This document shows, piece after piece, positions 35,779 through 52,886 of a stretch of DNA of 64,000 nucleotides. Origin of the DNA: Escherichia coli (GTDB lineage Bacteria > Pseudomonadota > Gammaproteobacteria > Enterobacterales > Enterobacteriaceae); NCBI RefSeq assembly GCF_001677475.2, contig NZ_CP015229.1. One strand, written 5' to 3'. Position 1 is the stretch's first letter; each line of letters opens with the position of its first letter. Below the pieces are notes generated by a model that was not told the origin of the DNA, made no database searches, and saw nothing but the letters and a program-made list of their open reading frames with translations. The position numbers and the translations under genes were made by a program.

Positions 35779-36485
35779 TCGAACTCGTGATTGTATCGCG
35801 TCTCCTTGAATATCCGGATGCTGCCTTATGGCAGCATCAACAAGAGATGTTTGAGGCGATTGCCGCGTCGGAAAATCTGTCAAAAGAGGATGCCCATGCG
35901 CTGGGCATTTTCCTGCGCGATTTAACGGCGATGGATCCGCTCGATGCTCAGGCCCAGTACAGCGAACTGTTCGATCGTGGTCGCGCCACGTCGCTGTTGC
36001 TGTTTGAGCACGTTCACGGGGAATCCCGCGATCGCGGTCAGGCGATGGTGGACCTGCTGGCACAGTACGAGCAGCACGGTTTGCAGTTAAACAGCCGCGA
36101 ATTGCCGGACCACCTGCCGCTGTATCTGGAGTATCTGGCGCAGCTGCCGCAAAGCGAAGCCGTGGAGGGTTTGAAAGATATTGCGCCGATTCTGGCATTG
36201 CTGAGCGCGCGTCTGCAACAGCGTGAAAGCCGTTATGCCGTGCTGTTTGATCTGCTGCTGAAACTGGCCAATACCGCTATCGACAGTGACAAAGTGGCGG
36301 AAAAAATTGCCGACGAAGCGCGCGACGATACGCCGCAGGCGCTGGATGCTGTCTGGGAAGAAGAGCAGGTTAAATTCTTTGCTGACAAAGGCTGCGGTGA
36401 TTCAGCAATCACTGCTCATCAGCGTCGCTTTGCCGGTGCCGTCGCGCCGCAATATCTGAATATCACCACCGGAGGACAGCACTAA
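35775..36485 (+). CDS. narJ: nitrate reductase assembly chaperone NarJ
   Basis: 236 aa; overlaps narH stop. Confidence 0.95.
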
Positions 36486-37162
36486 TGCAATTCCTGAATA
36501 TGTTCTTCTTTGATATCTACCCGTACATAGCCGGGGCGGTCTTCCTGATTGGTAGCTGGCTGCGTTATGACTACGGGCAGTACACCTGGCGCGCGGCGTC
36601 CAGCCAGATGCTGGATCGCAAAGGGATGAACCTGGCGTCGAACCTGTTCCATATCGGTATTCTGGGGATTTTTGTCGGTCACTTCTTCGGTATGCTGACG
36701 CCGCACTGGATGTATGAAGCCTGGCTGCCGATTGAAGTGAAACAGAAAATGGCGATGTTTGCTGGTGGTGCCAGCGGCGTGCTGTGTCTGATTGGCGGCG
36801 TGCTGTTGCTGAAACGTCGTCTGTTCAGCCCACGCGTGCGTGCAACGACTACCGGAGCGGATATCCTGATCCTGTCTCTGCTGGTTATCCAGTGCGCTCT
36901 GGGCTTGCTGACCATTCCGTTCTCCGCCCAGCATATGGACGGTAGCGAGATGATGAAACTGGTTGGCTGGGCGCAGTCGGTAGTGACCTTCCACGGTGGC
37001 GCTTCTCAACACCTTGATGGTGTGGCGTTTATCTTCCGTCTGCACCTGGTGCTGGGGATGACGTTATTCTTGCTGTTCCCGTTCTCACGTCTGGTGCACA
37101 TCTGGAGCGTACCGGTGGAGTATCTGACACGTAAGTATCAGCTGGTGCGCGCTCGTCACTAA
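36485..37162 (+). CDS. narI: respiratory nitrate reductase A, gamma subunit (cytochrome b)
   Basis: 225 aa, five TM helices; 1-nt overlap with narJ. Confidence 0.95.
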
Positions 37163-37183
37163 GCGAATTTTAGTTTGCATAGA

Positions 37184-37206
37184 CCCCGCTTCGGCGGGGT
37201 TTTTTT
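37184..37206 (+). terminator. rho-independent terminator of narGHJI (CCCCGC-TTCG-GCGGGG + TTTTTTT)
   Basis: Perfect 6-bp GC stem with tetraloop, 7 T, 22 nt after narI stop. Confidence 0.85.
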
Positions 37207-37227
37207 ATGGGCACGGTACGGGGTGAG

Positions 37228-37290
37228 TTGTCGGATGCGCTTCGCTTATCCGACCTACAGGGGAGGATATTGTAGGTCCGGTAAACGCGG
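37228..37290. repeat. REP/BIME-like palindromic element
   Basis: GTCGGATGCGCTTCGCTTATCCGACCTACA facing inverted partner TGTAGGTCCGGTAAACGCGGTGCC. Confidence 0.45.
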
Positions 37291-37346
37291 TGCCATTGGG
37301 CAGAATTAGCTCGGAGTAACAGGTTTTGAGTATTTACAGGAAGTGA

Positions 37347-37880
37347 TGGTGGTGGGGGAAGGATTACTCAGCGCTGCGTGCTTCACCCTTCGGGTCGTTG
37401 CCTGCGGCAACGCTCTCTCGCTGGCGCTCGAGTCGAACCTTGGTCGAAGCTTCTCATCCTTCCCCGCTTGGGCAGAATATTTAATTACGGATTCGTTTGA
37501 GAGTTCAGGGACTTTTGAAAGTTATGGTGGTGGGGGAAGGATTACTCAGCGCTGCGCGCTTCGCCCTTCGGGTCGTTGCCTGCGGCAACGCTCTCTCGCT
37601 GGCGCTCGAGTCGAACCTTGGTCGAAGCTTCTCATCCTTCCCCGCTTGGGCAGAATATTTAATTACGGATTCGTTTGAGAGCTCAGGGACTTTTGAAAGT
37701 GATGGTGGTGGGGGAAGGATTACTCAGCGCTGCGTGCTTCACCCTTCGGGTCGTTGCCTGCGGCAACGCTCTCTCGCTGGCGCTCGAGTCGAACCTTGGT
37801 CGAAGCTTCTCATCCTTCCCCGCTTGGGCAGAATATTTAATTACGGATTCGTTTGAGAGTTCAGGGACTTTTGAAAGTGA
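37347..37880 (-). repeat. three tandem 178-bp repeats in the distal tyrT operon (rtT/tpr region), each beginning with 19 nt identical to the tRNA-Tyr 3' end
   Basis: Units at 37347, 37525, 37703; next period at 37881 is the tRNA gene; partial degenerate copy at about 37321-37346. Confidence 0.9.
37546..37635 (-). CDS. tpr: Tpr-like Arg-rich 29-aa peptide ([29 protein letters not shown]) in the middle repeat
   Basis: Hand-translated minus-strand ORF; the same frame in the two flanking repeats stops after 24 aa. Confidence 0.5.
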
Positions 37881-37965
<85 letters not shown>

Positions 37966-38007
37966 ACGGGGTAATGCTTTTTACTGGCCTGCTCCCTTAT
38001 CGGGAAG

Positions 38008-38043
38008 CGGGGCGCATCATATCAAATGACGCGCCGCTGTAAA
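38008..38043 (-). promoter_or_regulatory. tyrT promoter: -35 TTTACA, 16-bp spacer, -10 TATGAT, GC-rich discriminator GCGCCCCGC
   Basis: Minus strand reads TTTACAGCGGCGCGTCATTTGATATGATGCGCCCCGCTTCCCGATAAGGG; predicted start about 43 nt upstream of mature tRNA 5' end. Confidence 0.8.
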
Positions 38044-38124
38044 GTGTTACGTTGAGAAAAATGAACTGGTTGCGTAATTTTCATCCGTAACGGATTAAAG
38101 GTAACCAGTTATTTTTGCTGGCGA

Positions 38125-38967
38125 TTAAAGAATAATCGTCCGATTACCGTAAACAAAGACGCGCTGCGCCAGTACTTTGTAGAGCGCGCGACTTAAGACG
38201 TTTTTCTCGACGTCACGACCTGCGCGCATCATATCTTCAGCTGTGTAGGTATGATCGACATGAATAACGTCCTGCATGATGATTGGGCCTTCGTCCAGAT
38301 TGTCATTCACATAGTGAGCGGTTGCGCCAATAATCTTCACGCCACGTTCATAGGCCTGGTGATAAGGACGTGCGCCGATAAACGCTGGCAGGAATGAATG
38401 GTGAATATTGATGATTTTATTCGGGAAGCGCGCCACAAATTCCGGCGTTAATACCCGCATATATTTCGCCAGCACCACGTAGTCAGGTTGATAAGCATCA
38501 ATGGCGTCCGCCATCTTTTGATCGTGCTCGTTGCGGCTTAACCCTTCATGGCTTACCAGCTCAAACGGAATATCAAAACGCTCAACCAGAGAACGTAAAG
38601 TATCGTGGTTACCAATAACTGCCGCGATTTCGACATCCAGGCCGCCGTAATTGGCTTTCATCAACAAATCGCCAAGGCAATGCGCTTCTTTCGTGACCAG
38701 AATCACTATCCGGCGACGACCGGCAGGATTCAGCTCACGCACGGAGCCTTCTGGCAATGCGCTATCGAGATCCGCCAGCAGGGTGGAATCATTAAAAATC
38801 CCTTCCAGTTCCGTGCGCATAAAAAAGCGCCCGGTACGGTGATCAACAAATTCATTGTTCTGCACGATATTTAACTCGTGCTTGTAGCAAATATTGGTAA
38901 TACGTGCGATCAGACCTTTTTGGTCCGGACAAATAGTACGCAGAACTTTACGTTGGAGTGAATGCAT
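38125..38967 (-). CDS. purU: formyltetrahydrofolate deformylase
   Basis: 280 aa, ACT domain + formyltransferase domain. Confidence 0.95.
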   Translation of the reverse strand: MHSLQRKVLRTICPDQKGLIARITNICYKHELNIVQNNEFVDHRTGRFFMRTELEGIFNDSTLLADLDSALPEGSVRELNPAGRRRIVILVTKEAHCLGDLLMKANYGGLDVEIAAVIGNHDTLRSLVERFDIPFELVSHEGLSRNEHDQKMADAIDAYQPDYVVLAKYMRVLTPEFVARFPNKIINIHHSFLPAFIGARPYHQAYERGVKIIGATAHYVNDNLDEGPIIMQDVIHVDHTYTAEDMMRAGRDVEKNVLSRALYKVLAQRVFVYGNRTIIL

Positions 38968-39016
38968 TGCTGGAAAAACCTTGTTGAGAGTGTTTGCTAA
39001 ACCGTACCGTCAACCA

Positions 39017-39475
39017 TTATTGGCCGCAGCACTTTTTAAATTTTTTACCTGAACCACAAGGGCAGGGATCGTTGCGGCCAAACTGCGGACGTGTACCGTC
39101 AATATAGTACCATTGACCGTTTTCTTTCAAAAATCGCGAACGTTCAATTATTGCACCTGTTTTGCCACCTTCGGTAAATCGCGCAACAAAACTGACAAAT
39201 CCGATATTGTCGACGTCCTGCCAACAATGTTCAAATACGGTCAATCCCAACCATTCAGTATGCGCAAATCCGGCAATCAATTCGGCACGTAACGCCGCTG
39301 CTCCACAAGATGGATGCCAGGTCTTTATTAAATAATCTGCGTCTTGCATCACAAAAGCGCAGTAACGCGAACGCATGAGATGTTCTGGATCAGGTGCAAC
39401 CTTTTCACCAGACACATAAGGGTGGCAACATAGGCTATACTCGACAGCACTACCACAGGGACAAAGCTGAGACAC
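39017..39475 (-). CDS. ychJ: SEC-C motif protein YchJ (UPF0225)
   Basis: ORF 39017..39496; GTG start gives 152 aa; CPCGS...CC motifs at both ends. Confidence 0.8.
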
Positions 39476-39587
39476 AATTAATCTCCCTGGAAACAATAAC
39501 GGCGTATTAACCGCCTGAGTAGCACTATGTTAACCGAGCAGTAGCGATGTGGCTACGATTGCATTCCAGGGGAATCTTGCGGGAATA

Positions 39588-40493
39588 ATGAGAAAGATAA
39601 AAATAGGGCTGGCGCTGGGATCTGGCGCGGCGAGAGGTTGGTCGCATATTGGCGTTATTAATGCGCTAAAAAAAGTGGGTATTGAAATTGATATCGTTGC
39701 AGGATGTTCAATTGGTTCGCTGGTGGGCGCTGCCTATGCATGCGATCGATTATCTGCGCTGGAAGATTGGGTGACCTCTTTCAGTTATTGGGATGTTTTA
39801 CGCCTGATGGATCTCTCCTGGCAGCGCGGTGGGTTACTGCGCGGCGAGCGTGTCTTCAATCAATATCGCGAAATAATGCCGGAAACAGAGATCGAAAATT
39901 GTTCCCGTCGCTTCGCGGCTGTTGCCACCAATTTAAGTACGGGGCGTGAATTATGGTTTACTGAAGGCGATCTCCATCTTGCTATTCGCGCATCATGCAG
40001 TATTCCAGGACTAATGGCACCCGTTGCGCATAACGGCTACTGGCTGGTTGATGGGGCAGTAGTTAACCCAATTCCTATTTCCCTCACGCGTGCATTGGGT
40101 GCTGATATTGTGATAGCGGTCGACCTGCAGCACGATGCTCATTTGATGCAACAAGATCTGCTCTCCTTTAATGTCAGTGAAGAAAATAGCGAGAATGGTG
40201 ATTCTCTGCCGTGGCATGCGCGTCTGAAAGAAAGGTTGGGCAGCATAACGACACGTCGGGCGGTGACAGCGCCAACGGCAACAGAGATTATGACCACTTC
40301 TATCCAGGTGCTGGAGAACCGCCTTAAAAGGAACCGCATGGCAGGTGATCCGCCCGATATTCTGATTCAACCTGTTTGCCCGCAAATATCTACGCTTGAT
40401 TTCCATCGCGCGCACGCTGCCATTGCGGCTGGGCAGCTGGCAGTGGAAAAGAAAATGGACGAACTTTTGCCGTTGGTACGCACCAACATTTGA
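39588..40493 (+). CDS. rssA: patatin-like phospholipase RssA
   Basis: ORF 39549..40493; ATG at 39588 gives MRKIKIGLALGSGAARGWSHIGV..., 301 aa; GxSxG lipase motif. Confidence 0.85.
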   Translation: MRKIKIGLALGSGAARGWSHIGVINALKKVGIEIDIVAGCSIGSLVGAAYACDRLSALEDWVTSFSYWDVLRLMDLSWQRGGLLRGERVFNQYREIMPETEIENCSRRFAAVATNLSTGRELWFTEGDLHLAIRASCSIPGLMAPVAHNGYWLVDGAVVNPIPISLTRALGADIVIAVDLQHDAHLMQQDLLSFNVSEENSENGDSLPWHARLKERLGSITTRRAVTAPTATEIMTTSIQVLENRLKRNRMAGDPPDILIQPVCPQISTLDFHRAHAAIAAGQLAVEKKMDELLPLVRTNI

Positions 40494-40584
40494 CCAGAAT
40501 TTTTATCTACACTTAAGTTAATTCTGACAGGCGCAGGTGGCAATAGCATGCCACTATTGAGTAAAGCCAGTCAGGGGAGAGAAC

Positions 40585-41598
40585 ATGACGCAGCCATTGG
40601 TCGGAAAACAGATTCTCATTGTTGAAGATGAGCAGGTATTTCGCTCGCTTCTGGATTCGTGGTTTTCCTCATTGGGAGCGACAACGGTACTGGCGGCTGA
40701 TGGGGTGGATGCCCTTGAGTTGCTGGGAGGTTTCACTCCAGACCTGATGATATGTGATATCGCGATGCCACGAATGAACGGGCTTAAACTGCTGGAACAT
40801 ATACGCAACAGAGGTGACCAGACACCGGTTCTGGTGATATCTGCCACTGAAAATATGGCAGATATTGCCAAAGCGTTACGTCTGGGCGTTGAAGATGTTT
40901 TGCTGAAACCAGTTAAAGATCTGAATCGCTTGCGCGAGATGGTTTTTGCCTGTCTCTATCCCAGCATGTTTAATTCCCGCGTTGAGGAAGAGGAAAGGCT
41001 TTTTCGCGACTGGGATGCAATGGTTGATAACCCTGCCGCAGCGGCGAAATTATTACAGGAACTACAACCGCCGGTTCAGCAGGTGATTTCCCATTGCCGG
41101 GTTAATTACCGTCAATTGGTTGCCGCGGACAAACCCGGCCTGGTGCTTGATATTGCCGCACTTTCGGAAAACGATCTGGCATTTTATTGCCTTGATGTCA
41201 CCCGAGCTGGACATAATGGCGTACTTGCTGCCTTGTTATTACGCGCATTGTTTAACGGATTATTACAGGAACAGCTTGCACACCAAAATCAACGGTTGCC
41301 AGAGTTGGGCGCGTTATTGAAGCAGGTAAACCATTTACTCCGTCAGGCCAATCTGCCGGGGCAGTTTCCGCTATTAGTTGGCTATTATCATCGCGAACTG
41401 AAAAATCTCATTCTGGTTTCTGCGGGTCTGAATGCGACGTTAAATACCGGCGAACACCAGGTGCAAATCAGTAATGGTGTTCCGTTAGGCACTTTAGGTA
41501 ACGCTTATTTGAATCAATTGAGCCAGCGATGCGATGCCTGGCAATGCCAAATATGGGGAACCGGTGGTCGGCTGCGCTTGATGTTGTCTGCAGAATGA
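40585..41598 (+). CDS. rssB: RpoS-degradation adaptor/response regulator RssB
   Basis: 337 aa, N-terminal receiver domain, PP2C-like C-terminus. Confidence 0.95.
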   Translation: MTQPLVGKQILIVEDEQVFRSLLDSWFSSLGATTVLAADGVDALELLGGFTPDLMICDIAMPRMNGLKLLEHIRNRGDQTPVLVISATENMADIAKALRLGVEDVLLKPVKDLNRLREMVFACLYPSMFNSRVEEEERLFRDWDAMVDNPAAAAKLLQELQPPVQQVISHCRVNYRQLVAADKPGLVLDIAALSENDLAFYCLDVTRAGHNGVLAALLLRALFNGLLQEQLAHQNQRLPELGALLKQVNHLLRQANLPGQFPLLVGYYHRELKNLILVSAGLNATLNTGEHQVQISNGVPLGTLGNAYLNQLSQRCDAWQCQIWGTGGRLRLMLSAE

Positions 41599-41799
41599 GC
41601 AAACGATAACGCGGGCTAAATTTGCATTACCTGCTAATGTCGGCTGGTGGTACTATCGTCGCCATTCGTATAAGCAATTGTCTTAATTATGCTAACTCGC
41701 CTCCTTTTCAGAACTAAGCCCCTTCGGGGTGCTGATATACTGGGATGCGATACAGAAATATGAACACGTTCAAAACACGAACAGTCCAGGAGAATTTAA

Positions 41800-42708
41800 A
41801 TGGCTGCCATTAATACGAAAGTCAAAAAAGCCGTTATCCCCGTTGCGGGATTAGGAACCAGGATGTTGCCGGCGACGAAAGCCATCCCGAAAGAGATGCT
41901 GCCACTTGTCGATAAGCCATTAATTCAATACGTCGTGAATGAATGTATTGCGGCTGGCATTACTGAAATTGTGCTGGTTACTCACTCATCTAAAAACTCT
42001 ATTGAAAACCACTTTGATACCAGTTTTGAACTGGAAGCAATGCTGGAAAAACGTGTAAAACGTCAACTGCTTGATGAAGTGCAGTCTATTTGTCCGCCGC
42101 ACGTGACTATTATGCAAGTTCGTCAGGGGCTGGCGAAAGGCCTGGGACACGCGGTATTGTGTGCTCACCCGGTAGTGGGTGATGAACCTGTGGCTGTTAT
42201 TTTGCCTGACGTTATTCTGGATGAATATGAATCCGATTTGTCACAGGATAACCTGGCAGAGATGATCCGCCGCTTTGATGAAACGGGTCATAGCCAGATC
42301 ATGGTTGAACCGGTTGCTGATGTGACCGCATATGGTGTTGTGGATTGCAAAGGCGTTGAATTAGCGCCGGGTGAAAGCGTACCTATGGTTGGCGTGGTTG
42401 AAAAACCAAAAGCGGATGTTGCGCCGTCTAATCTCGCTATTGTGGGTCGTTACGTACTTAGCGCGGATATTTGGCCGTTGCTGGCAAAAACCCCTCCAGG
42501 AGCTGGTGATGAAATTCAGCTCACCGACGCAATTGATATGCTGATCGAAAAAGAAACGGTTGAAGCCTATCATATGAAAGGGAAGAGCCATGACTGCGGT
42601 AATAAATTAGGTTACATGCAGGCCTTCGTTGAATACGGTATTCGTCATAACACCCTTGGCACGGAATTTAAAGCCTGGCTTGAAGAAGAGATGGGCATTA
42701 AGAAGTAA
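41800..42708 (+). CDS. galU: UTP-glucose-1-phosphate uridylyltransferase
   Basis: 302 aa, [33 protein letters not shown]... Confidence 0.95.
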
Positions 42709-42733
42709 CATCCGTATTGGTGTTATCTACGAA

Positions 42734-42763
42734 ACGGCGTTGAGCAATCGACGCCGTTTTTTT
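42734..42763 (+). terminator. rho-independent terminator after galU (ACGGCGT...ACGCCGT + T7)
   Basis: Hairpin + U-run 26 nt after galU stop. Confidence 0.8.
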
Positions 42764-42799
42764 ATAGCTTATTCTTATTAAACTGTCTTAAACCGGACA

Positions 42800-42828
42800 A
42801 TAAAAAATCCCGCCGATGGCGGGATTTT
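42800..42828 (-). terminator. rho-independent terminator after hns (ATCCCGCC-ATC-GGCGGGAT + U-run)
   Basis: Perfect 8-bp stem, A6 on plus strand gives U6 on minus; about 25 nt past hns stop. Confidence 0.8.
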
Positions 42829-42851
42829 AAGCAAGTGCAATCTACAAAATA

Positions 42852-43265
42852 TTATTGCTTGATCAGGAAATCGTCGAGGGATTTACCTTGCTCATCCATT
42901 GCTTTTTTGATTACAGCTGGAGTACGGCCCTGGCCAGTCCAGGTTTTAGTTTCGCCGTTTTCGTCAACGTAGCTATATTTTGCCGGACGCTGAGCACGTT
43001 TAGCTTTGGTGCCAGATTTAACGGCAGCAAGGCTATTCAGCAGTTCGTTCGGGTCAATACCGTCAGCGATCAGCATTTCGCGATATTGCTGCAGTTTACG
43101 AGTGCGCTCTTCAACTTCAGCAGCAGCCGCGCTTTCTTCTTCGCGACGTTCGTTAACAACAACTTCTAATTTTTCCAGCATTTCTTCCAGCGTTTCAAGT
43201 GTACATTCTCTTGCCTGCGCACGAAGAGTACGGATGTTGTTCAGAATTTTAAGTGCTTCGCTCAT
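42852..43265 (-). CDS. hns: nucleoid-associated protein H-NS
   Basis: 137 aa, [41 protein letters not shown]... Confidence 0.97.
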
Positions 43266-43868
43266 TGTAGTAATCTCAAACTTATATTGGGGTGGTTTGT
43301 TGAGGTAATAATAGAGCCTTAAATTCAGTTGTGCAATAGCCAGGAATGTAAGGAATTCAAAATTGTTCTTTATTTTGTGCCGCCAATAAATATCTTTTCA
43401 TAAAATTAGCCAGAAAAGACGCGGCATATAGCCCTATTTGCACCGATGATTTCGCAGCACGTGAGGTTAAAACTTCCTGATTCATGTCACATTTTATGGG
43501 GAGATTATCGTAGGCTGACGACCTTTCAGTCTTCTGTATTAGTCGTGTTTACGAGAATTCCCTATTAAGCGAATGATGAAAAGTAGAACAGTCGCAATAC
43601 GAGCAGGGACTTAGTATTGCACTATCTCCTGGAGGTCAACAGAGGGCTATTACTTGCGCAACAGGTTAAAGATTGTGAATAGTTACCAGCAGTCATTTAC
43701 CCGCTTATAACAAGCGAGGCAGTTGTAATGATAGCTCAGAAGGATTATGCAAGGCTTCGTAAGGGAGAACGCATATACCACTTCTGTGCATACTGTTGAG
43801 CTGAAAAACTGACGAATTATGATAAACTCCAGCCAACTTTATTTCATATCATTGAGGGCCTGTGGCTG

Positions 43869-44486
43869 ATGGCACAGCTATATTTCTACTATTCCGCAAT
43901 GAATGCGGGTAAGTCTACAGCATTGTTGCAATCTTCATACAATTACCAGGAACGTGGCATGCGCACTGTCGTATATACGGCAGAAATTGATGATCGTTTT
44001 GGTGCCGGGAAAGTCAGCTCGCGTATAGGTTTGTCATCGCCTGCAAAATTATTTAACCAAAATTCATCATTATTTGATGAGATTCGTGCGGAACATGAAC
44101 AGCAGGCAATTCATTGCGTACTGGTTGATGAATGCCAGTTTTTAACCAGACAACAAGTATATGAATTATCGGAGGTTGTCGATCAACTCGATATACCCGT
44201 ACTTTGTTATGGTTTACGTACCGATTTTCGAGGTGAGTTATTTATTGGCAGCCAATACTTACTGGCATGGTCCGACAAACTGGTTGAATTAAAAACCATC
44301 TGTTTTTGTGGCCGCAAAGCAAGCATGGTGCTGCGTCTTGATCAAGCAGGCAGACCTTATAACGAAGGTGAGCAGGTGGTTATTGGTGGTAATGAACGCT
44401 ACGTTTCTGTATGCCGTAAACACTATAAAGAAGCGTTAGAAGTCGGCTCATTAACGGCTATTCAGGAAAGGCATCGCCACAATTAA
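43869..44486 (+). CDS. tdk: thymidine kinase
   Basis: 205 aa, P-loop NAGKST, Zn-ribbon cysteines. Confidence 0.95.
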
Positions 44487-44732
44487 TAAGAATTTCTTTA
44501 CTGACAGGGTGAGCAGGGCGCTTTTATCCTGTCAGTTCGTTTTACTCACTTCATCCGGTGTATATACCCTTCTCGACAGTTCTTTAACGCCACTATACCC
44601 CTCACAGAGCGCTTTTACAGTGACGTTGACTTGTGACCTGTAAAGTACAATATCGCTGTGTGTAGGCGTTATACATCGCCGTAAATATGATGAAGGCAAA
44701 TGCTGTCGGTTTATGGGAAAGTTGCTTTGGGT

Positions 44733-44765
44733 AAAACAAAAAAACGGCCCCAGAAGGGGCCGTTT
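44733..44765. terminator. bidirectional rho-independent terminator shared by convergent tdk and adhE (CGGCCCC-AGAA-GGGGCCG flanked by A12 and T3)
   Basis: Strong U-run on minus strand (adhE side), weaker on plus. Confidence 0.8.
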
Positions 44766-44788
44766 ATGTTGCCAGGCAGCGCTACTGA

Positions 44789-47464
44789 TTAAGCGGATTT
44801 TTTCGCTTTTTTCTCAGCTTTAGCCGGAGCGGCTTCTTTCTTCGCTGCAGTTTCGCCTTCTACATAATCACGACCGTAGTAGGTATCCAGCAGAATCTGT
44901 TTCAGCTCGGAGATCAGCGGGTAACGCGGGTTAGCGCCGGTGCACTGGTCATCGAATGCATCTTCAGACAGTTTATCCACGTTCGCCAGGAAGTCTGCTT
45001 CCTGAACGCCAGCTTCACGGATAGATTTCGGAATACCCAGTTCAGCTTTCAGCGTTTCCAGCCATGCCAGCAGTTTCTCGATCTTAGCAGCAGTACGGTC
45101 GCCCGGTGCGCTCAGACCGAGGTGGTCGGCAATTTCAGCATAACGACGGCGAGCCTGCGGACGGTCATACTGGCTGAATGCAGTCTGCTTGGTCGGGTTG
45201 TCGTTCGCATTGTAGCGAATAACGTTACAAATCAGCAGGGCGTTTGCCAGACCGTGCGGAATATGGAACTGGGAACCCAGTTTGTGCGCCATTGAGTGAC
45301 ATACACCCAGGAAGGCGTTCGCAAACGCGATACCCGCGATAGTTGCTGCACTGTGAACACGTTCACGCGCTACCGGATTTTTAGACCCTTCGTGGTAGGA
45401 CGCTGGCAGATATTCTTTCAGCAGTTTCAGTGCCTGCAGAGCCTGACCATCAGAGAACTCAGATGCCAGTACAGAAACATAAGCTTCCATGGCGTGGGTT
45501 ACTGCGTCCAGACCACCGAAAGCACACAGGGACTTCGGCATGTCCATAACCAGGTTGGCGTCGACAATCGCCATATCCGGGGTCAGCGCATAGTCCGCCA
45601 GCGGGTATTTCTGACCAGTAGCGTCGTCAGTTACAACCGCAAACGGAGTGACTTCAGAACCTGTACCAGAAGTGGTGGTGACAGCGATCATTTTCGCTTT
45701 CACGCCCATTTTCGGGAACTTGTAGATACGTTTACGGATATCCATAAAGCGCAGCGCCAGCTCTTCGAAGTGAGTTTCCGGATGTTCGTACATAACCCAC
45801 ATGATCTTCGCGGCATCCATCGGGGAACCACCACCCAGCGCGATAATCACGTCTGGTTTGAAGGAGTTTGCCAGTTCTGCACCTTTACGAACGATGCTCA
45901 GGGTCGGGTCCGCTTCTACTTCGAAGAAGACTTCAGTTTCAACGCCTGCTGCTTTCAGTACGGAAGTGATCTGATCAGCATAACCATTGTTGAACAGGAA
46001 GCGGTCAGTCACGATGAGCGCACGTTTGTGGCCATCAGTAATCACTTCATCCAGCGCGATTGGCAGGGAGCCACGGCGGAAGTAGATAGATTTCGGAAGT
46101 TTGTGCCACAACATGTTTTCAGCTCGCTTAGCAACGGTTTTCTTGTTGATCAGGTGTTTCGGACCAACGTTTTCAGAGATGGAGTTACCACCCCAGGAAC
46201 CACAACCCAGAGTCAGGGAAGGTGCGAGTTTGAAGTTATACAGGTCACCGATACCACCCTGAGAAGCCGGGGTGTTAATCAGGATACGAGCCGTTTTCAT
46301 TTTCTGACCGAAGTAAGAAACGCGTGCCGGTTGGTTATCCTGGTCAGTGTACAGGCAAGAGGTATGACCGATACCACCCATAGCAACCAGTTTCTCTGCT
46401 TTTTCTACCGCGTCTTCGAAATCTTTAGCGCGGTACATTGCCAGAGTCGGGGACAGTTTTTCATGTGCGAACGGTTCGCTTTCATCAACAACGGTCACTT
46501 CACCGATCAGAATCTTGGTGTTTTCTGGTACAGAGAAGCCTGCCAGTTCAGCAATTTTATAGGCTGGCTGACCAACGATAGCCGCGTTCAGTGCACCGTT
46601 TTTCAGGATAACATCCTGAACAGCTTTCAGCTCTTTACCCTGCAACAGATAGCCGCCGTGGGTTGCGAAACGTTCACGTACTGCGTCATAAACAGAGTCA
46701 ACAACAACAACAGACTGTTCAGAAGCACAGATTACGCCGTTGTCGAAGGTTTTCGACATCAGTACAGATGCAACTGCACGTTTGATATCAGCAGTTTCAT
46801 CAATAACAACTGGAGTGTTACCCGCGCCTACACCGATAGCTGGTTTACCGGAGCTGTATGCGGCTTTAACCATGCCCGGACCACCAGTCGCGAGGATCAG
46901 GTTGATGTCTGGGTGGTGCATCAGTGCGTTAGACAGTTCAACAGAAGGTTGATCGATCCAGCCGATCAGATCTTTCGGAGCACCGGCAGCGATAGCAGCC
47001 TGCAGAACGATATCAGCCGCTTTGTTGGTGGCATCTTTTGCACGCGGGTGCGGGGAGAAGATAATGGCGTTACGGGTCTTCAGACTGATCAGCGATTTGA
47101 AGATAGCAGTTGAAGTCGGGTTAGTGGTCGGAACGATACCGCAAATAATACCGATTGGTTCAGCGATAGTGATGGTACCAAAAGTGTCGTCTTCAGACAG
47201 AACACCACAGGTTTTTTCATCTTTATAGGCGTTGTAAATATATTCAGAAGCAAAGTGGTTTTTGATCACTTTATCTTCGACGATACCCATGCCGGATTCG
47301 GCAACGGCCATTTTCGCGAGTGGGATTCGAGCATCTGCAGCAGCCAGAGCGGCGGCGCGGAAGATTTTGTCTACTTGCTCTTGAGTGAAACTGGCATATT
47401 CACGCTGGGCTTTTTTTACACGCTCTACGAGTGCGTTAAGTTCAGCGACATTAGTAACAGCCAT
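44789..47464 (-). CDS. adhE: bifunctional aldehyde/alcohol dehydrogenase AdhE
   Basis: 891 aa, N-terminal ALDH domain and C-terminal iron-ADH domain. Confidence 0.97.
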
Positions 47465-47940
47465 AATGCTCTCCTGATAATGTTAAACTTTTTTAGTAAA
47501 TCATCTGCTCGAATACGAGAGTATAGTCAGTGCGGTGATGATTTGCTTAACCGATGAAAATCAAAAGCTTACTCGCGCTCACACTCACTGTGATTTACTA
47601 AAAGAGTTTAAACATTAGAGTTATTATCTCTAATGCGTCACTTCCAGGTGGCGTAAGCAAGATTACTCACTTCTGGGTACTGATTACGTGATCCAAATCA
47701 AATTTTTGCAAAGCTGACACCTTTCAGCATCGTTTTTCGCCATTATAGCTAACAGTTAATAAATTGTAGTATGATTTGGTGGCTACATTAGCATGTTTTG
47801 CACAACTAGATAACAATAACGAATGATAGCAATTTTAAGTAGTTAGGAGGTGAAAAATGCTGTCAAAAGGCGTATTGTCAGCGCGTCTTTTCAACCTTAT
47901 TTATGGCTAATATTATCCGGCTTTTGCTTCGGAGCTAACC

Positions 47941-48588
47941 GTGATTCAGACCCTTTTTGATTTTCCCGTTTACTTCAAATTTTTCATCGGGTTATTTGCG
48001 CTGGTCAACCCGGTAGGGATTATTCCCGTCTTTATCAGCATGACCAGTTATCAGACAGCGGCAGCGCGAAACAAAACTAACCTTACAGCCAACCTGTCTG
48101 TGGCCATTATCTTGTGGATCTCGCTTTTTCTCGGCGACACGATTCTACAACTTTTTGGTATATCAATTGATTCGTTCCGTATCGCCGGGGGCATCCTGGT
48201 GGTGACGATAGCGATGTCGATGATCAGCGGCAAGCTTGGAGAGGATAAACAGAACAAGCAAGAAAAATCAGAAACCGCGGTACGTGAAAGCATTGGTGTG
48301 GTGCCACTGGCGTTGCCGTTGATGGCGGGACCAGGGGCGATCAGTTCTACCATCGTCTGGGGTACGCGTTATCACAGCATTAGCTATCTGTTTGGTTTCT
48401 TTGTGGCTATTGCATTGTTCGCTTTATGTTGTTGGGGATTGTTCCGCATGGCACCGTGGCTGGTACGGGTTTTACGCCAGACCGGCATCAACGTGATTAC
48501 GCGTATTATGGGGCTATTGCTGATGGCATTGGGGATTGAATTTATTGTTACTGGTATTAAGGGGATTTTCCCCGGCCTGCTTAATTAA
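47941..48588 (+). CDS. ychE: MarC-family (UPF0056) inner-membrane protein YchE
   Basis: 215 aa, GTG start, six TM segments. Confidence 0.85.
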   Translation: MIQTLFDFPVYFKFFIGLFALVNPVGIIPVFISMTSYQTAAARNKTNLTANLSVAIILWISLFLGDTILQLFGISIDSFRIAGGILVVTIAMSMISGKLGEDKQNKQEKSETAVRESIGVVPLALPLMAGPGAISSTIVWGTRYHSISYLFGFFVAIALFALCCWGLFRMAPWLVRVLRQTGINVITRIMGLLLMALGIEFIVTGIKGIFPGLLN

Positions 48589-49325
48589 TTCCTTTCAAAT
48601 GAAACGGAGCTGCCATGCTCCGTTTACTTCGTCATTATTTTTACTTTGTTCCCGCGCAGTTATCAAAAGCAAAAGGAATAGGTAAAAATATTCTTCTCAA
48701 ATTACAGTTAGTTATAAGGATTTCCTTAACTGCTTCTCCTCACCATCATGTTATTTTCGCCACATCATAATCCTGGGCTTGCTGAAGAATAATTGAAATG
48801 ATATTAGTAATTCCACTGCCTTTGGTAGAGGAAAGTGCTAAATAATAATCAATTGTTAAATTATTGTGCATTTCACTACTGGAACTGTAATCAGAAAAGA
48901 GAGACATGCTTAACCAATCTCTATTTGATTGAATTGAAAGATGTTTGTTAAGACATGGATGCAAGCTATAGATTCTGATACGGTCAATAAAAGAGAATTG
49001 CTTAACAATTTTGCAAAATGTATTGGCGAGTAAGAACCGCATTTGGTACTTTCCGGGCAACCGCCAGACGATTCTTTATTGGTAATGAGAATAATTAACA
49101 ATTAAAGAACGGCGCGAAAGAATAATGTGTCTCGACAGGGGAGACACAGTACGAATCGACATAAGGTGATCGTCTGAATCACCAGAATAAATAAAGTCGG
49201 TGATAGTAATACGTAACGATAAAGTAACCTGACAGTAGAAAGTCTCCGAGCCTGTGCAGGGTCCCAATCCGGGATTACACATGCTGGTTAATACCAGTAA
49301 TTATAATGAGGGAGTCCAAAAAACA

Positions 49326-50957
49326 ATGACCAACATCACCAAGAGAAGTTTAGTAGCAGCTGGCGTTCTGGCTGCGCTAATGGCAGGGAATGTCGCGCTG
49401 GCAGCTGATGTACCCGCAGGCGTCACACTGGCGGAAAAACAAACGCTGGTACGTAACAATGGTTCAGAAGTTCAGTCATTAGATCCGCACAAAATTGAAG
49501 GTGTTCCGGAGTCTAATATCAGCCGAGACCTGTTTGAAGGCTTACTGGTCAGCGATCTTGACGGTCATCCGGCACCTGGCGTCGCTGAATCCTGGGATAA
49601 TAAAGACGCGAAAGTCTGGACCTTCCATTTGCGTAAAGATGCGAAATGGTCTGATGGCACGCCAGTCACAGCACAAGACTTTGTGTATAGCTGGCAACGT
49701 TCTGTTGATCCGAACACTGCTTCTCCGTATGCCAGTTATCTGCAATATGGTCATATCGCCGGTATTGATGAAATTCTTGAAGGGAAAAAACCAATTACCG
49801 ATCTCGGCGTGAAAGCTATTGATGATCACACATTAGAAGTCACCTTAAGTGAACCCGTTCCGTACTTCTATAAATTACTTGTTCACCCATCGACTTCACC
49901 GGTGCCAAAAGCCGCTATCGAGAAATTCGGCGAAAAATGGACCCAGCCTGGTAATATCGTCACCAACGGTGCCTATACCTTAAAAGATTGGGTCGTAAAC
50001 GAACGAATCGTTCTTGAACGCAGCCCGACCTACTGGAACAACGCGAAAACCGTTATTAACCAGGTAACCTATTTGCCTATTGCTTCTGAAGTTACCGATG
50101 TCAACCGCTACCGTAGTGGTGAAATCGACATGACGTATAACAACATGCCGATCGAATTGTTCCAGAAGCTGAAAAAAGAGATCCCGGACGAAGTTCACGT
50201 TGATCCATACCTGTGCACTTACTATTACGAAATTAACAACCAGAAACCGCCATTCAACGATGTGCGTGTGCGTACCGCACTGAAACTAGGTATGGACCGC
50301 GATATCATTGTTAATAAAGTGAAAGCGCAGGGCGACATGCCCGCCTATGGTTACACTCCACCGTATACTGATGGCGCAAAATTGACTCAGCCAGAATGGT
50401 TTGGCTGGAGCCAGGAAAAACGTAACGAAGAAGCGAAAAAACTGCTGGCTGAAGCGGGTTATACCGCAGACAAACCGTTGACCATCAACCTGCTGTATAA
50501 CACCTCCGATCTGCATAAAAAGCTGGCGATTGCTGCCTCTTCATTGTGGAAGAAAAACATTGGTGTAAACGTCAAACTGGTTAACCAGGAGTGGAAAACG
50601 TTCCTCGACACCCGTCACCAGGGCACTTTTGATGTGGCCCGTGCAGGCTGGTGTGCAGACTACAACGAACCAACTTCCTTCCTGAACACCATGCTGTCGA
50701 ACAGCTCGATGAATACCGCGCATTATAAGAGCCCGGCCTTTGACAGCATTATGGCGGAAACGCTGAAAGCGACTGACGAGGCGCAGCGCACAGCTCTGTA
50801 CACTAAAGCAGAACAACAGCTGGATAAGGATTCGGCCATTGTTCCTGTTTATTACTACGTGAATGCGCGTCTGGTGAAACCGTGGGTTGGTGGCTATACC
50901 GGCAAAGATCCGCTGGATAATACCTACACCCGGAATATGTACATTGTGAAGCACTAA
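49326..50957 (+). CDS. oppA: periplasmic oligopeptide-binding protein OppA
   Basis: ORF 49254..50957; ATG at 49326 gives MTNITKRSLVAAGVLAALMAGNVALA signal peptide, 543 aa. Confidence 0.95.
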   Translation: MTNITKRSLVAAGVLAALMAGNVALAADVPAGVTLAEKQTLVRNNGSEVQSLDPHKIEGVPESNISRDLFEGLLVSDLDGHPAPGVAESWDNKDAKVWTFHLRKDAKWSDGTPVTAQDFVYSWQRSVDPNTASPYASYLQYGHIAGIDEILEGKKPITDLGVKAIDDHTLEVTLSEPVPYFYKLLVHPSTSPVPKAAIEKFGEKWTQPGNIVTNGAYTLKDWVVNERIVLERSPTYWNNAKTVINQVTYLPIASEVTDVNRYRSGEIDMTYNNMPIELFQKLKKEIPDEVHVDPYLCTYYYEINNQKPPFNDVRVRTALKLGMDRDIIVNKVKAQGDMPAYGYTPPYTDGAKLTQPEWFGWSQEKRNEEAKKLLAEAGYTADKPLTINLLYNTSDLHKKLAIAASSLWKKNIGVNVKLVNQEWKTFLDTRHQGTFDVARAGWCADYNEPTSFLNTMLSNSSMNTAHYKSPAFDSIMAETLKATDEAQRTALYTKAEQQLDKDSAIVPVYYYVNARLVKPWVGGYTGKDPLDNTYTRNMYIVKH

Positions 50958-51042
50958 TGGCAATACGTGGGGCAGGAGTGTCCTGCTCCACGGTGTCTGA
51001 TTTTTATCGCATTACAGAAGGCACAGGCCAGAAGGTAGGGCA

Positions 51043-51963
51043 ATGTTAAAATTTATTCTACGTCGCTGTCTGGAAGCGATTCCGACGCTATTTATTCTTA
51101 TTACTATTTCGTTCTTTATGATGCGCCTCGCGCCGGGAAGCCCTTTTACCGGCGAACGTACTTTACCGCCTGAAGTGATGGCCAATATCGAAGCGAAATA
51201 TCATCTTAATGATCCGATCATGACACAGTATTTCAGCTACCTGAAACAACTGGCGCACGGTGATTTCGGTCCATCGTTTAAATATAAAGATTATTCGGTC
51301 AATGACCTGGTGGCATCCAGTTTTCCCGTTTCTGCCAAACTGGGAGCCGCAGCATTTTTCCTTGCGGTAATACTGGGTGTTAGTGCTGGCGTTATTGCCG
51401 CATTAAAACAAAACACCAAATGGGACTATACCGTGATGGGGCTGGCAATGACCGGGGTTGTTATCCCCAGTTTTGTGGTTGCGCCATTATTAGTCATGAT
51501 ATTTGCGATCATTTTGCATTGGCTGCCGGGCGGTGGCTGGAATGGTGGGGCGCTTAAATTCATGATATTGCCGATGGTGGCGTTGTCACTCGCCTATATC
51601 GCCAGTATTGCGCGTATTACCCGTGGCTCTATGATTGAGGTTTTACACTCCAACTTTATTCGTACTGCCCGGGCGAAAGGGTTACCTATGCGGCGGATCA
51701 TTTTACGCCACGCATTAAAACCTGCTCTGTTACCCGTGCTCTCCTATATGGGCCCCGCATTTGTCGGCATTATTACCGGTTCTATGGTCATCGAAACCAT
51801 TTATGGTTTGCCGGGGATTGGGCAATTGTTCGTTAATGGCGCATTGAACCGTGACTATTCCTTAGTGTTAAGCCTGACCATCCTGGTTGGTGCGTTAACC
51901 ATTTTGTTTAATGCCATTGTCGATGTGCTATATGCGGTTATCGACCCGAAAATCCGTTACTGA
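51043..51963 (+). CDS. oppB: oligopeptide ABC transporter permease OppB
   Basis: 306 aa, six TM, ABC permease signature. Confidence 0.95.
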   Translation: MLKFILRRCLEAIPTLFILITISFFMMRLAPGSPFTGERTLPPEVMANIEAKYHLNDPIMTQYFSYLKQLAHGDFGPSFKYKDYSVNDLVASSFPVSAKLGAAAFFLAVILGVSAGVIAALKQNTKWDYTVMGLAMTGVVIPSFVVAPLLVMIFAIILHWLPGGGWNGGALKFMILPMVALSLAYIASIARITRGSMIEVLHSNFIRTARAKGLPMRRIILRHALKPALLPVLSYMGPAFVGIITGSMVIETIYGLPGIGQLFVNGALNRDYSLVLSLTILVGALTILFNAIVDVLYAVIDPKIRY

Positions 51964-51977
51964 TACTGGAGCTCGCG

Positions 51978-52886
51978 ATGATGTTAAGTAAGAAAAACAG
52001 CGAGACGCTGGAAAATTTCAGTGAAAAGCTGGAGGTCGAAGGGCGCAGCTTGTGGCAGGACGCACGTCGACGTTTTATGCATAACCGTGCGGCGGTTGCC
52101 AGTCTGATAGTGCTGGTGCTGATCGCGTTATTTGTAATCCTGGCACCGATGCTTTCGCAGTTTGCCTATGACGATACTGACTGGGCGATGATGTCCAGCG
52201 CCCCGGATATGGAGTCCGGTCACTACTTTGGTACTGACTCATCCGGTCGCGACCTGCTTGTGCGCGTTGCGATTGGCGGGCGTATCTCACTCATGGTCGG
52301 TGTTGCTGCGGCACTGGTGGCAGTGGTCGTGGGGACACTTTACGGTTCGCTTTCCGGTTATCTGGGCGGTAAAGTGGATTCGGTAATGATGCGTCTGCTG
52401 GAAATCCTCAACTCCTTCCCATTCATGTTCTTCGTCATTTTGCTGGTGACCTTTTTCGGTCAAAACATCCTGCTGATTTTCGTGGCGATTGGCATGGTTT
52501 CCTGGCTGGATATGGCTCGTATTGTGCGTGGGCAAACCCTGAGTCTGAAGCGCAAAGAGTTTATTGAGGCGGCACAAGTTGGTGGTGTATCGACGCCGGG
52601 CATTGTTATTCGCCACATTGTGCCGAACGTACTCGGTGTGGTGGTGGTCTACGCATCGCTTCTGGTGCCCAGCATGATCCTCTTTGAATCTTTCCTTAGC
52701 TTCCTGGGGTTGGGTACGCAAGAGCCGTTAAGCAGCTGGGGGGCATTGCTGAGTGATGGCGCGAACTCGATGGAAGTCTCTCCATGGTTACTGTTGTTCC
52801 CAGCGGGATTCCTCGTGGTGACGCTGTTTTGTTTCAACTTTATCGGCGATGGCTTGCGTGATGCCCTCGACCCGAAAGATCGTTAA
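51978..52886 (+). CDS. oppC: oligopeptide ABC transporter permease OppC
   Basis: 302 aa. Confidence 0.95.
   Translation: MMLSKKNSETLENFSEKLEVEGRSLWQDARRRFMHNRAAVASLIVLVLIALFVILAPMLSQFAYDDTDWAMMSSAPDMESGHYFGTDSSGRDLLVRVAIGGRISLMVGVAAALVAVVVGTLYGSLSGYLGGKVDSVMMRLLEILNSFPFMFFVILLVTFFGQNILLIFVAIGMVSWLDMARIVRGQTLSLKRKEFIEAAQVGGVSTPGIVIRHIVPNVLGVVVVYASLLVPSMILFESFLSFLGLGTQEPLSSWGALLSDGANSMEVSPWLLLFPAGFLVVTLFCFNFIGDGLRDALDPKDR

Follow-up and report, generated by a model that had tools for sequence, protein, structure and literature searches.

The window analyzed here is a 64-kb stretch of Escherichia coli DNA, in which the convergent genes tdk (+ strand, ending ...CAC AAT TAA with the TAA finishing at 44486) and adhE (- strand, with its TAA stop at 44789-44791) are separated by exactly 302 bp in the gene order rssB-galU-hns-tdk-adhE-ychE. 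The features of this interval, together with the insertions in other strains to which it was compared, are collected in Table 1. The two ORF ends give the same compact 302-bp spacer that a preliminary description of this DNA had claimed, and its statement that the spacer lacks any IS remnant was borne out by searches with IS4 and K-12 insZ (blastn) and with the IS4 transposase (tblastn), none of which returned a match anywhere in the whole 64-kb window. The marks of an IS4-family element, namely terminal inverted repeats of the form (T/C)AATGCC...GGCATT(A/G), a transposase ORF or fragment of one, and flanking repeats of 10-12 bp, were likewise not found in the window, and the 12-bp sequence that is duplicated by insertions in other strains is present as a single copy, clean and without a footprint. 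For the 16-kb stretch from 36000 to 52000, the best identity to any complete E. coli chromosome in the collection was 98.9%. Two neighboring features were recorded alongside. In the galU-hns spacer (42727-42828, + strand) an Rfam match to frnS scored 28.2 bits (gathering score, 60; E = 0.093) and is probably the terminator hairpin common to the convergent galU and hns genes; in K-12, Term-seq assigns the 3' end of hns to the homologous CCCGCCAGCGGCGGG-U6 hairpin (PMC7815308). In the closest genomes RefSeq annotates an 18-codon (54 nt) gene for 'protein YchT' immediately upstream of ychE (6571-6624 of the matching stretch L002), which by homology would place it at approximately 47860-47915 in the window.

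Table 1. Features of the tdk-adhE interval in the window, and insertions and IS-end structures in compared strains. Positions without a prefix are those of the window; L numbers denote compared stretches from other genomes.
Feature	Position	Strand or orientation	Basis or remark
tdk (thymidine kinase) CDS, 205 aa	43869-44486	+	ORF; matching E. coli RefSeq stretches annotated tdk
tdk-adhE intergenic spacer, 302 bp, IS-free	44487-44788		ORF bounds; BLAST for IS4/insZ
tdk-proximal hairpin, 9-bp perfect outer stem ACTGACAGG/CCTGTCAGT, ~16 pairs in fold	44500-44536	+	Inverted repeat, fold
Central spacer, fast-evolving, single-copy, without recognizable feature	44549-44732		
A-run AAAACAAAAAAA, U-tract (U7GU4) of the predicted adhE terminator on the - strand and left arm of the IS4 target	44733-44744	+	
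Predicted adhE intrinsic terminator hairpin AAACGGCCCC-UUCU-GGGGCCGUUU, 7 G-C core pairs	44742-44765	-	Terminator scan, perfect inverted repeat, fold
Unoccupied IS4-family target CCCCAGAAGGGG, stem top and loop, duplicated upon insertion elsewhere	44748-44759		Junctions of K-12, PK6, MS7163, Ecol_542, AF14
adhE (aldehyde/alcohol dehydrogenase) CDS, 891 aa	44789-47464	-	ORF; annotated adhE in matching RefSeq genomes
PK6, full-length IS4, 1426 bp		Transposase on adhE strand	Duplication CCCCAGAAGGGG
MS7163 and Ecol_542, 1145-bp internally deleted IS4			Junctions same as PK6; duplication CCCCAGAAGGGG
Type strain ATCC 11775, 1145-bp internally deleted IS4			MS7163 interval matched at 100%; duplication CCCCAGAAGGGG
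AF14, full-length IS4		Opposite to PK6	Duplication CCCCAGAAGGGA
raiA-bamD IS4 copy	L013 1160-1200 and 2627-2670		Strain 2015C-4136CT1
IS-end hairpins	L001 5380-5410 (K-12 = MG1655 1295324-1295354); L005 5615-5660; L008 5840-5890		

Read on the + strand, the adhE-proximal GC hairpin is AAACGGCCCC / AGAA / GGGGCCGTTT, a perfect inverted repeat of 10 bp in which 10 of 10 pairs are complementary around a 4-nt loop, and it lies 23 nt from the adhE stop. The 66-nt region around it folds with -23.7 kcal/mol (z = -3.06 relative to shuffles), and the core stem alone accounts for -15.5 kcal/mol. A terminator scan of 44300-45000 returned four terminator-like sites against 0.7 expected from shuffles and picked out the GC hairpin on the - strand alone, where both the stem-loop and the U-run of an intrinsic terminator are found: the adhE-strand tail that follows the hairpin is UUUUUUUGUUUUA, with seven U residues in the first 8 nt. 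The tdk-strand tail is only UUUAUGUU (6 U in 8), and the flanks are unequal, with an A4CA7 run on the tdk side versus a mere TTTATGTT T-run on the adhE side. The GC hairpin flanked by A- and T-runs of the preliminary description is therefore correct in its hairpin and its A-run, whereas the T-run amounts to no more than TTTATGTT and leaves the flanks asymmetric. A rough terminator score, calculated with an approximate formula in the style of d'Aubenton-Carafa 1990, gave the GC hairpin 67.7 in the adhE direction and 21.9 in the tdk direction. The adhE terminator of E. coli B and other empty-site strains has the same GC stem of 7-10 bp, 4-nt loop, U7GU4 tract and distance of 23 nt past the stop; the stem in the window is perfect, whereas the close alleles 2017.09.02CC and AF14 carry a G-to-A change in it. 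A GC hairpin followed by U7GU4 and positioned 23 nt after adhE would be expected to end the highly expressed adhE transcript in the window strain, with predicted 3' ends at approximately 44735-44741. On these features the hairpin appears to terminate adhE strongly and tdk only weakly, serving at best as a weak back-stop against tdk read-through.

A second hairpin, absent from the preliminary description, starts 14 nt downstream of the stop codon of tdk; UUCGUUUUAC (44537-44546) comes next, and with its UUCGUUUU tail included the hairpin spans 44500-44545. It folds with -21.7 kcal/mol (z = -2.59), and a long hairpin of this kind with a short U-rich tail may either end the tdk transcript or stabilize its end. 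Across nine E. coli alleles only 2 of its 37 sites are variable, and between the window and K-12 a single loop base is different. The two hairpins are far less variable than the central spacer and constitute the conserved parts of the interval, the center being its least conserved part with 30 of 184 sites variable (16%) across the nine alleles. The central spacer was also considered as a MITE or other repeat on account of an imperfect inverted repeat (44536-44548 / 44728-44740), a possibility that was ruled out by sensitive blastn with the 195 nt at 44541-44735, which found one copy per E. coli genome. The window allele of these 195 nt shares ~89% identity with the majority E. coli allele. 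The central spacer is in fact deeply dimorphic, with identity to the window allele of at least 95% in ~740 of 5,422 genomes and of ~89% in ~4,600. The same strains share 97-99% identity over the adjoining 200 nt of adhE together with 40 nt of spacer, and the 3' 200 nt of tdk are seemingly more diverged than usual. Either an ancient polymorphism or recombinational import could account for this dimorphism.

The MG1655 interval has the same flanking genes (tdk, 1293527-1294144; adhE, 1295446-1298121) but encloses 1301 bp (1294145-1295445); annotated there are ISZ, a mobile element at 1294426-1295405, and insZ (b4573), a pseudogene. The preliminary description had placed insZ at this position in K-12, rightly so, and an identical 302-bp spacer in K-12, the observation that it had named as contrary to its view, is not what the reference genome contains. 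The K-12 junctions were read in the derivative BW2952, in which the left junction is ...ACGGCCCCAGAAGGG/CAATGCCGTT... and the right junction is ...GATCGGCATTG/CCCAGAAGGGGCCGTTT. The element, an IS4-family remnant with a frameshifted transposase gene, has the ends CAATGCC...GGCATTG and measures 989 bp with its terminal inverted repeats counted. It lies within the loop of the GC hairpin, flanked by copies of CCCAGAAGGG, a direct duplication of 10 bp. Once the element and one duplicate copy are removed, the K-12 spacer is 302 bp and aligns end to end with that of the window, supporting the earlier proposal that the window represents the uninterrupted state, as do the IS-free intervals of three outgroup genera described below. 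The native adhE terminator of K-12 is thus split by an IS in the hairpin loop, whereas the hairpin of the window is whole. An assignment of the K-12 element to IS4 itself was rejected, given that the DNA match extends over only the terminal 34 bp and the protein is 31% identical over 226 residues. O157 Sakai carries a 93%-identical fragment of the K-12 element that is annotated as 'ISCro3 family IS4 partial'. The E. coli W genome paper, the one publication found to link insZ, adhE and IS4, lists ISZ'/insZ as present in K-12 and absent from W, B and Crooks.

Four insertion forms, that of K-12 included, occur at exactly this site in other strains (Table 1), and in every case a spacer of 300-302 bp is obtained when the IS and one duplicate copy are taken out. 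The junctions all duplicate the hairpin loop, and they involve two elements and both orientations; the loop has therefore been struck independently at least three times, the insertions coming from two distinct IS4-family elements. In a set of 5,426 complete E. coli genomes the site is empty in 2,203, occupied by the K-12-type element in 1,884, and marked by an IS4 junction in orientation A in 1,131 and in orientation B in 190, these four counted states summing to 5,408. No other single state is as common as the empty site, yet ~59% of complete E. coli genomes are occupied. The spacer haplotype of strain SOI121, whose site is empty, matches that of K-12, including the T that interrupts the A-run in K-12, save for a single base on the adhE-facing side of the hairpin, from which it follows that either the ISZ insertion is younger than the haplotype or the state of the site has been moved by recombination.

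Outgroup spacers were obtained by way of Tdk homologues and the contigs that carry them. An exact-pattern genome scan with AACGGCCCCNNNNGGGGCCGTT had proved unsuitable for this purpose, returning at least 120 unrelated loci and, among the matches listed, none at tdk-adhE; the scan is unspecific because the palindrome is a generic terminator shape. The convergent arrangement of tdk and adhE is IS-free in Salmonella enterica (196 bp), an Enterobacter (65 bp) and Pseudescherichia vulneris (87 bp), and each of the three has an A-run, a GC hairpin and a T-run beside adhE. In Salmonella the hairpin reads AACGGCCTC-AATT-GAGGCCGTT and seems to be the same structure, altered by a paired change in the stem. 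The target-site duplications imply that occupied sites derive from empty ones, and the IS-free outgroups point independently in the same direction; we conclude that the empty state is ancestral and that the window has the ancestral arrangement.

According to the preliminary description, the convergent genes share one bidirectional terminator, and the GC hairpin at 44742-44765 could indeed be a true terminator of both tdk and adhE, with the tdk-proximal hairpin having no role in termination. The Enterobacter spacer, in which a single hairpin stands between A7 and T5, can only contain a shared terminator, and terminators acting in both directions between convergent genes have been described in E. 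coli (bioRxiv 10.1101/2022.10.23.513370). The window resembles these in its palindromic GC hairpin with an upstream A-tract, of which the Enterobacter version is a textbook example, its + strand tail has 6 U in 8, and the rough score in the tdk direction is positive. The tdk-proximal hairpin scores -28 by the same formula, so that sequence criteria alone favor the GC hairpin for tdk. The window departs from such terminators, however, in that its tdk-sense T-tract has decayed and in that it possesses a separate tdk-proximal hairpin at which a 3' end has been measured in K-12. In MG1655 Term-seq data the sole + strand 3' end of the interval is 1294198 (Adams et al. 2021, PMC7815308 supplementary file 1), in the context ...CCTGTCAGTTCG/TTTTACGCACT, 54 nt past the tdk stop, 4 nt past the proximal stem and ~200 nt upstream of the GC hairpin; this position corresponds by homology to 44540 in the window, and the coordinates agree with the MG1655 annotation. 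Its reads are modest and were seen in two of three growth conditions (PMC7815308), and it could possibly be a processed end. Transcripts of tdk and adhE ending at one hairpin were not found in the K-12 data, which are uninformative as to the use of the GC hairpin by tdk because the IS splits that hairpin there. The proximal hairpin is moreover conserved where the surrounding sequence is not, and the scan detected the GC hairpin on the adhE strand only. From the K-12 3' end, the conservation of the proximal hairpin and the decayed T side of the GC hairpin, we conclude that tdk ends mainly at its own proximal hairpin, with the GC hairpin at most a back-stop. The proximal hairpin is probably a terminator or the stable 3' end of the tdk mRNA, an end that would arise by termination and not by processing. 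We consider a terminator shared by both genes rather unlikely: its adhE half is favored by the - strand U-tract and the scan, but its tdk half is poorly supported, the K-12 3' end at the equivalent of 44540 being indirect evidence against it for the window strain.

An sRNA or small-protein gene that would occupy the extra ~200 nt of central spacer, lacking in Enterobacter, and own both hairpins is very improbable. The whole spacer does fold somewhat better than shuffles (z = -2.84 on the + strand and -2.31 on the - strand) and contains short ORFs of 44-55 codons, but these ORFs lie in its most variable part, the center being the least conserved portion with its 16% of variable sites and ~11% divergence between alleles. 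An Rfam search of 42700-48200 at a permissive E-value gave sub-threshold matches only, the best for the spacer reaching 22.5 bits against a gathering score of 50; a promoter scan found one weak site against 0.7 expected, which is chance level; and K-12 Term-seq reveals no further 3' ends in the interval (PMC7815308). The Atu_C8 Rfam match, at 22 bits on both hairpin strands, was dismissed as a terminator artefact. The emptiness of the site could, in turn, be secondary, if an IS4-family element had once been present and was lost by precise excision. Closely similar flanking haplotypes do occur with and without an IS, as illustrated by SOI121, which differs from IS-removed K-12 at one position, and by IS-removed AF14, which differs from the window at three. 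Shared haplotypes of this kind are explained equally well by recent insertion, however, and the empty sites are found on several diverged spacer haplotypes. The loss of elements mobilized by DDE transposases rarely restores the target exactly, whereas the window retains one clean 12-bp copy with no footprint, and Salmonella, Enterobacter and Pseudescherichia are all IS-free at this position. Past excision is thus scarcely credible. The anatomy of the interval, its empty site, the junctions read in other strains, the counts across genomes, the outgroups free of an IS and the published K-12 RNA 3' ends are all matters of observation. We hold with good confidence in the account as a whole that the interval is the native, never-interrupted E. 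coli tdk-adhE spacer. It is an intact pair of predicted terminators with an unoccupied IS4 target, an arrangement that is ordinary and already known.

The repeated use of this one loop can be set against the shape of IS4 target sites elsewhere. At six IS4 copies in unrelated loci, an A-run lies 3 nt to the left of the 12-14 bp duplication in all and a T-rich stretch lies 3 nt to its right in most. The target in the window conforms to this pattern, being arranged AAAAAAA-CGG-CCCCAGAAGGGG-CCG-TTT. One of the six, found between raiA and bamD in strain 2015C-4136CT1, has likewise split a hairpin that stands between an A-run and a T-run, AAAAAAACGG/CAGCTCAAGGGCTG/CCGTTTT, and has duplicated 14 bp. 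These sites suggest that IS4 favors terminator-shaped DNA more generally. Mayaux and co-workers reportedly described, in 1984, an IS4 copy inserted into the attenuator of pheST and a target of the form AAA-N20-TTT; the window target, which is unoccupied, agrees with this rule in shape, although its arms are spaced AAA-N18-TTT and not N20. A GC hairpin with A-run and TTT flanks may be viewed as a near-ideal target for an IS4-family transposase, which would cut symmetrically around the loop so that 10-12 bp are duplicated. Strong arm specificity has been noted for some IS4-subgroup elements by De Palmenaer et al. (PMC2266710), with which the window target agrees.

Insertion at this position interrupts the hairpin on which adhE would otherwise depend, and the K-12 RNA data indicate where the transcript ends instead. 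A very abundant - strand 3' end was detected in MG1655 at 1295324 in all three conditions (PMC7815308 supplementary file 1). This end lies 122 nt beyond the adhE stop, 81 nt within the IS and 2 nt ahead of the insZ start, and it follows the hairpin CGGCTTCC-ACAACA-GGGAGCCG-UUUUCUU. When the adhE 3' regions of the other states were folded, IS4 displayed comparable structures just inside both of its ends: AAUCCGGAAACG...CGUUUCCGGAUUUUUUU at one end, directly before the transposase start codon, and GCCAGUCAGUU...AACUGACUGGC-UCUUUUUC at the other. One terminator-like hairpin of IS4 has U7 next to it and the transposase ATG immediately after. The location of the K-12 adhE 3' end at an IS-borne hairpin supports the notion of a replacement terminator supplied by the IS. 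We lean, if only somewhat, toward a model in which IS4-family elements land repeatedly in the adhE terminator loop and their insertions may persist through IS-end hairpins that replace the lost terminator. Such insertions would destroy the native adhE terminator while supplying its substitute and would consequently be nearly neutral, which would explain their persistence.

The understanding of terminators or of IS4 is unchanged by this locus, and the recurrence of IS4 is a tidy side result and not a discovery. The site is nonetheless a clean natural example of precise target choice by IS4-family elements and of their preference for terminator-shaped DNA, and its four states (empty, ISZ, IS4 forward and IS4 reverse) may provide a simple lineage marker. 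If the model of replacement is true, K-12 has a transposon-supplied adhE terminator and an adhE 3' UTR that is ~75 nt longer, whereas the window has the native arrangement. The reference strain is to be used with caution in this respect: K-12 is derived at this locus, with an adhE 3' UTR and terminator that are partly IS sequence, and its adhE 3' annotation is therefore not transferable to the ~41% of strains with an intact site, E. coli B among them.
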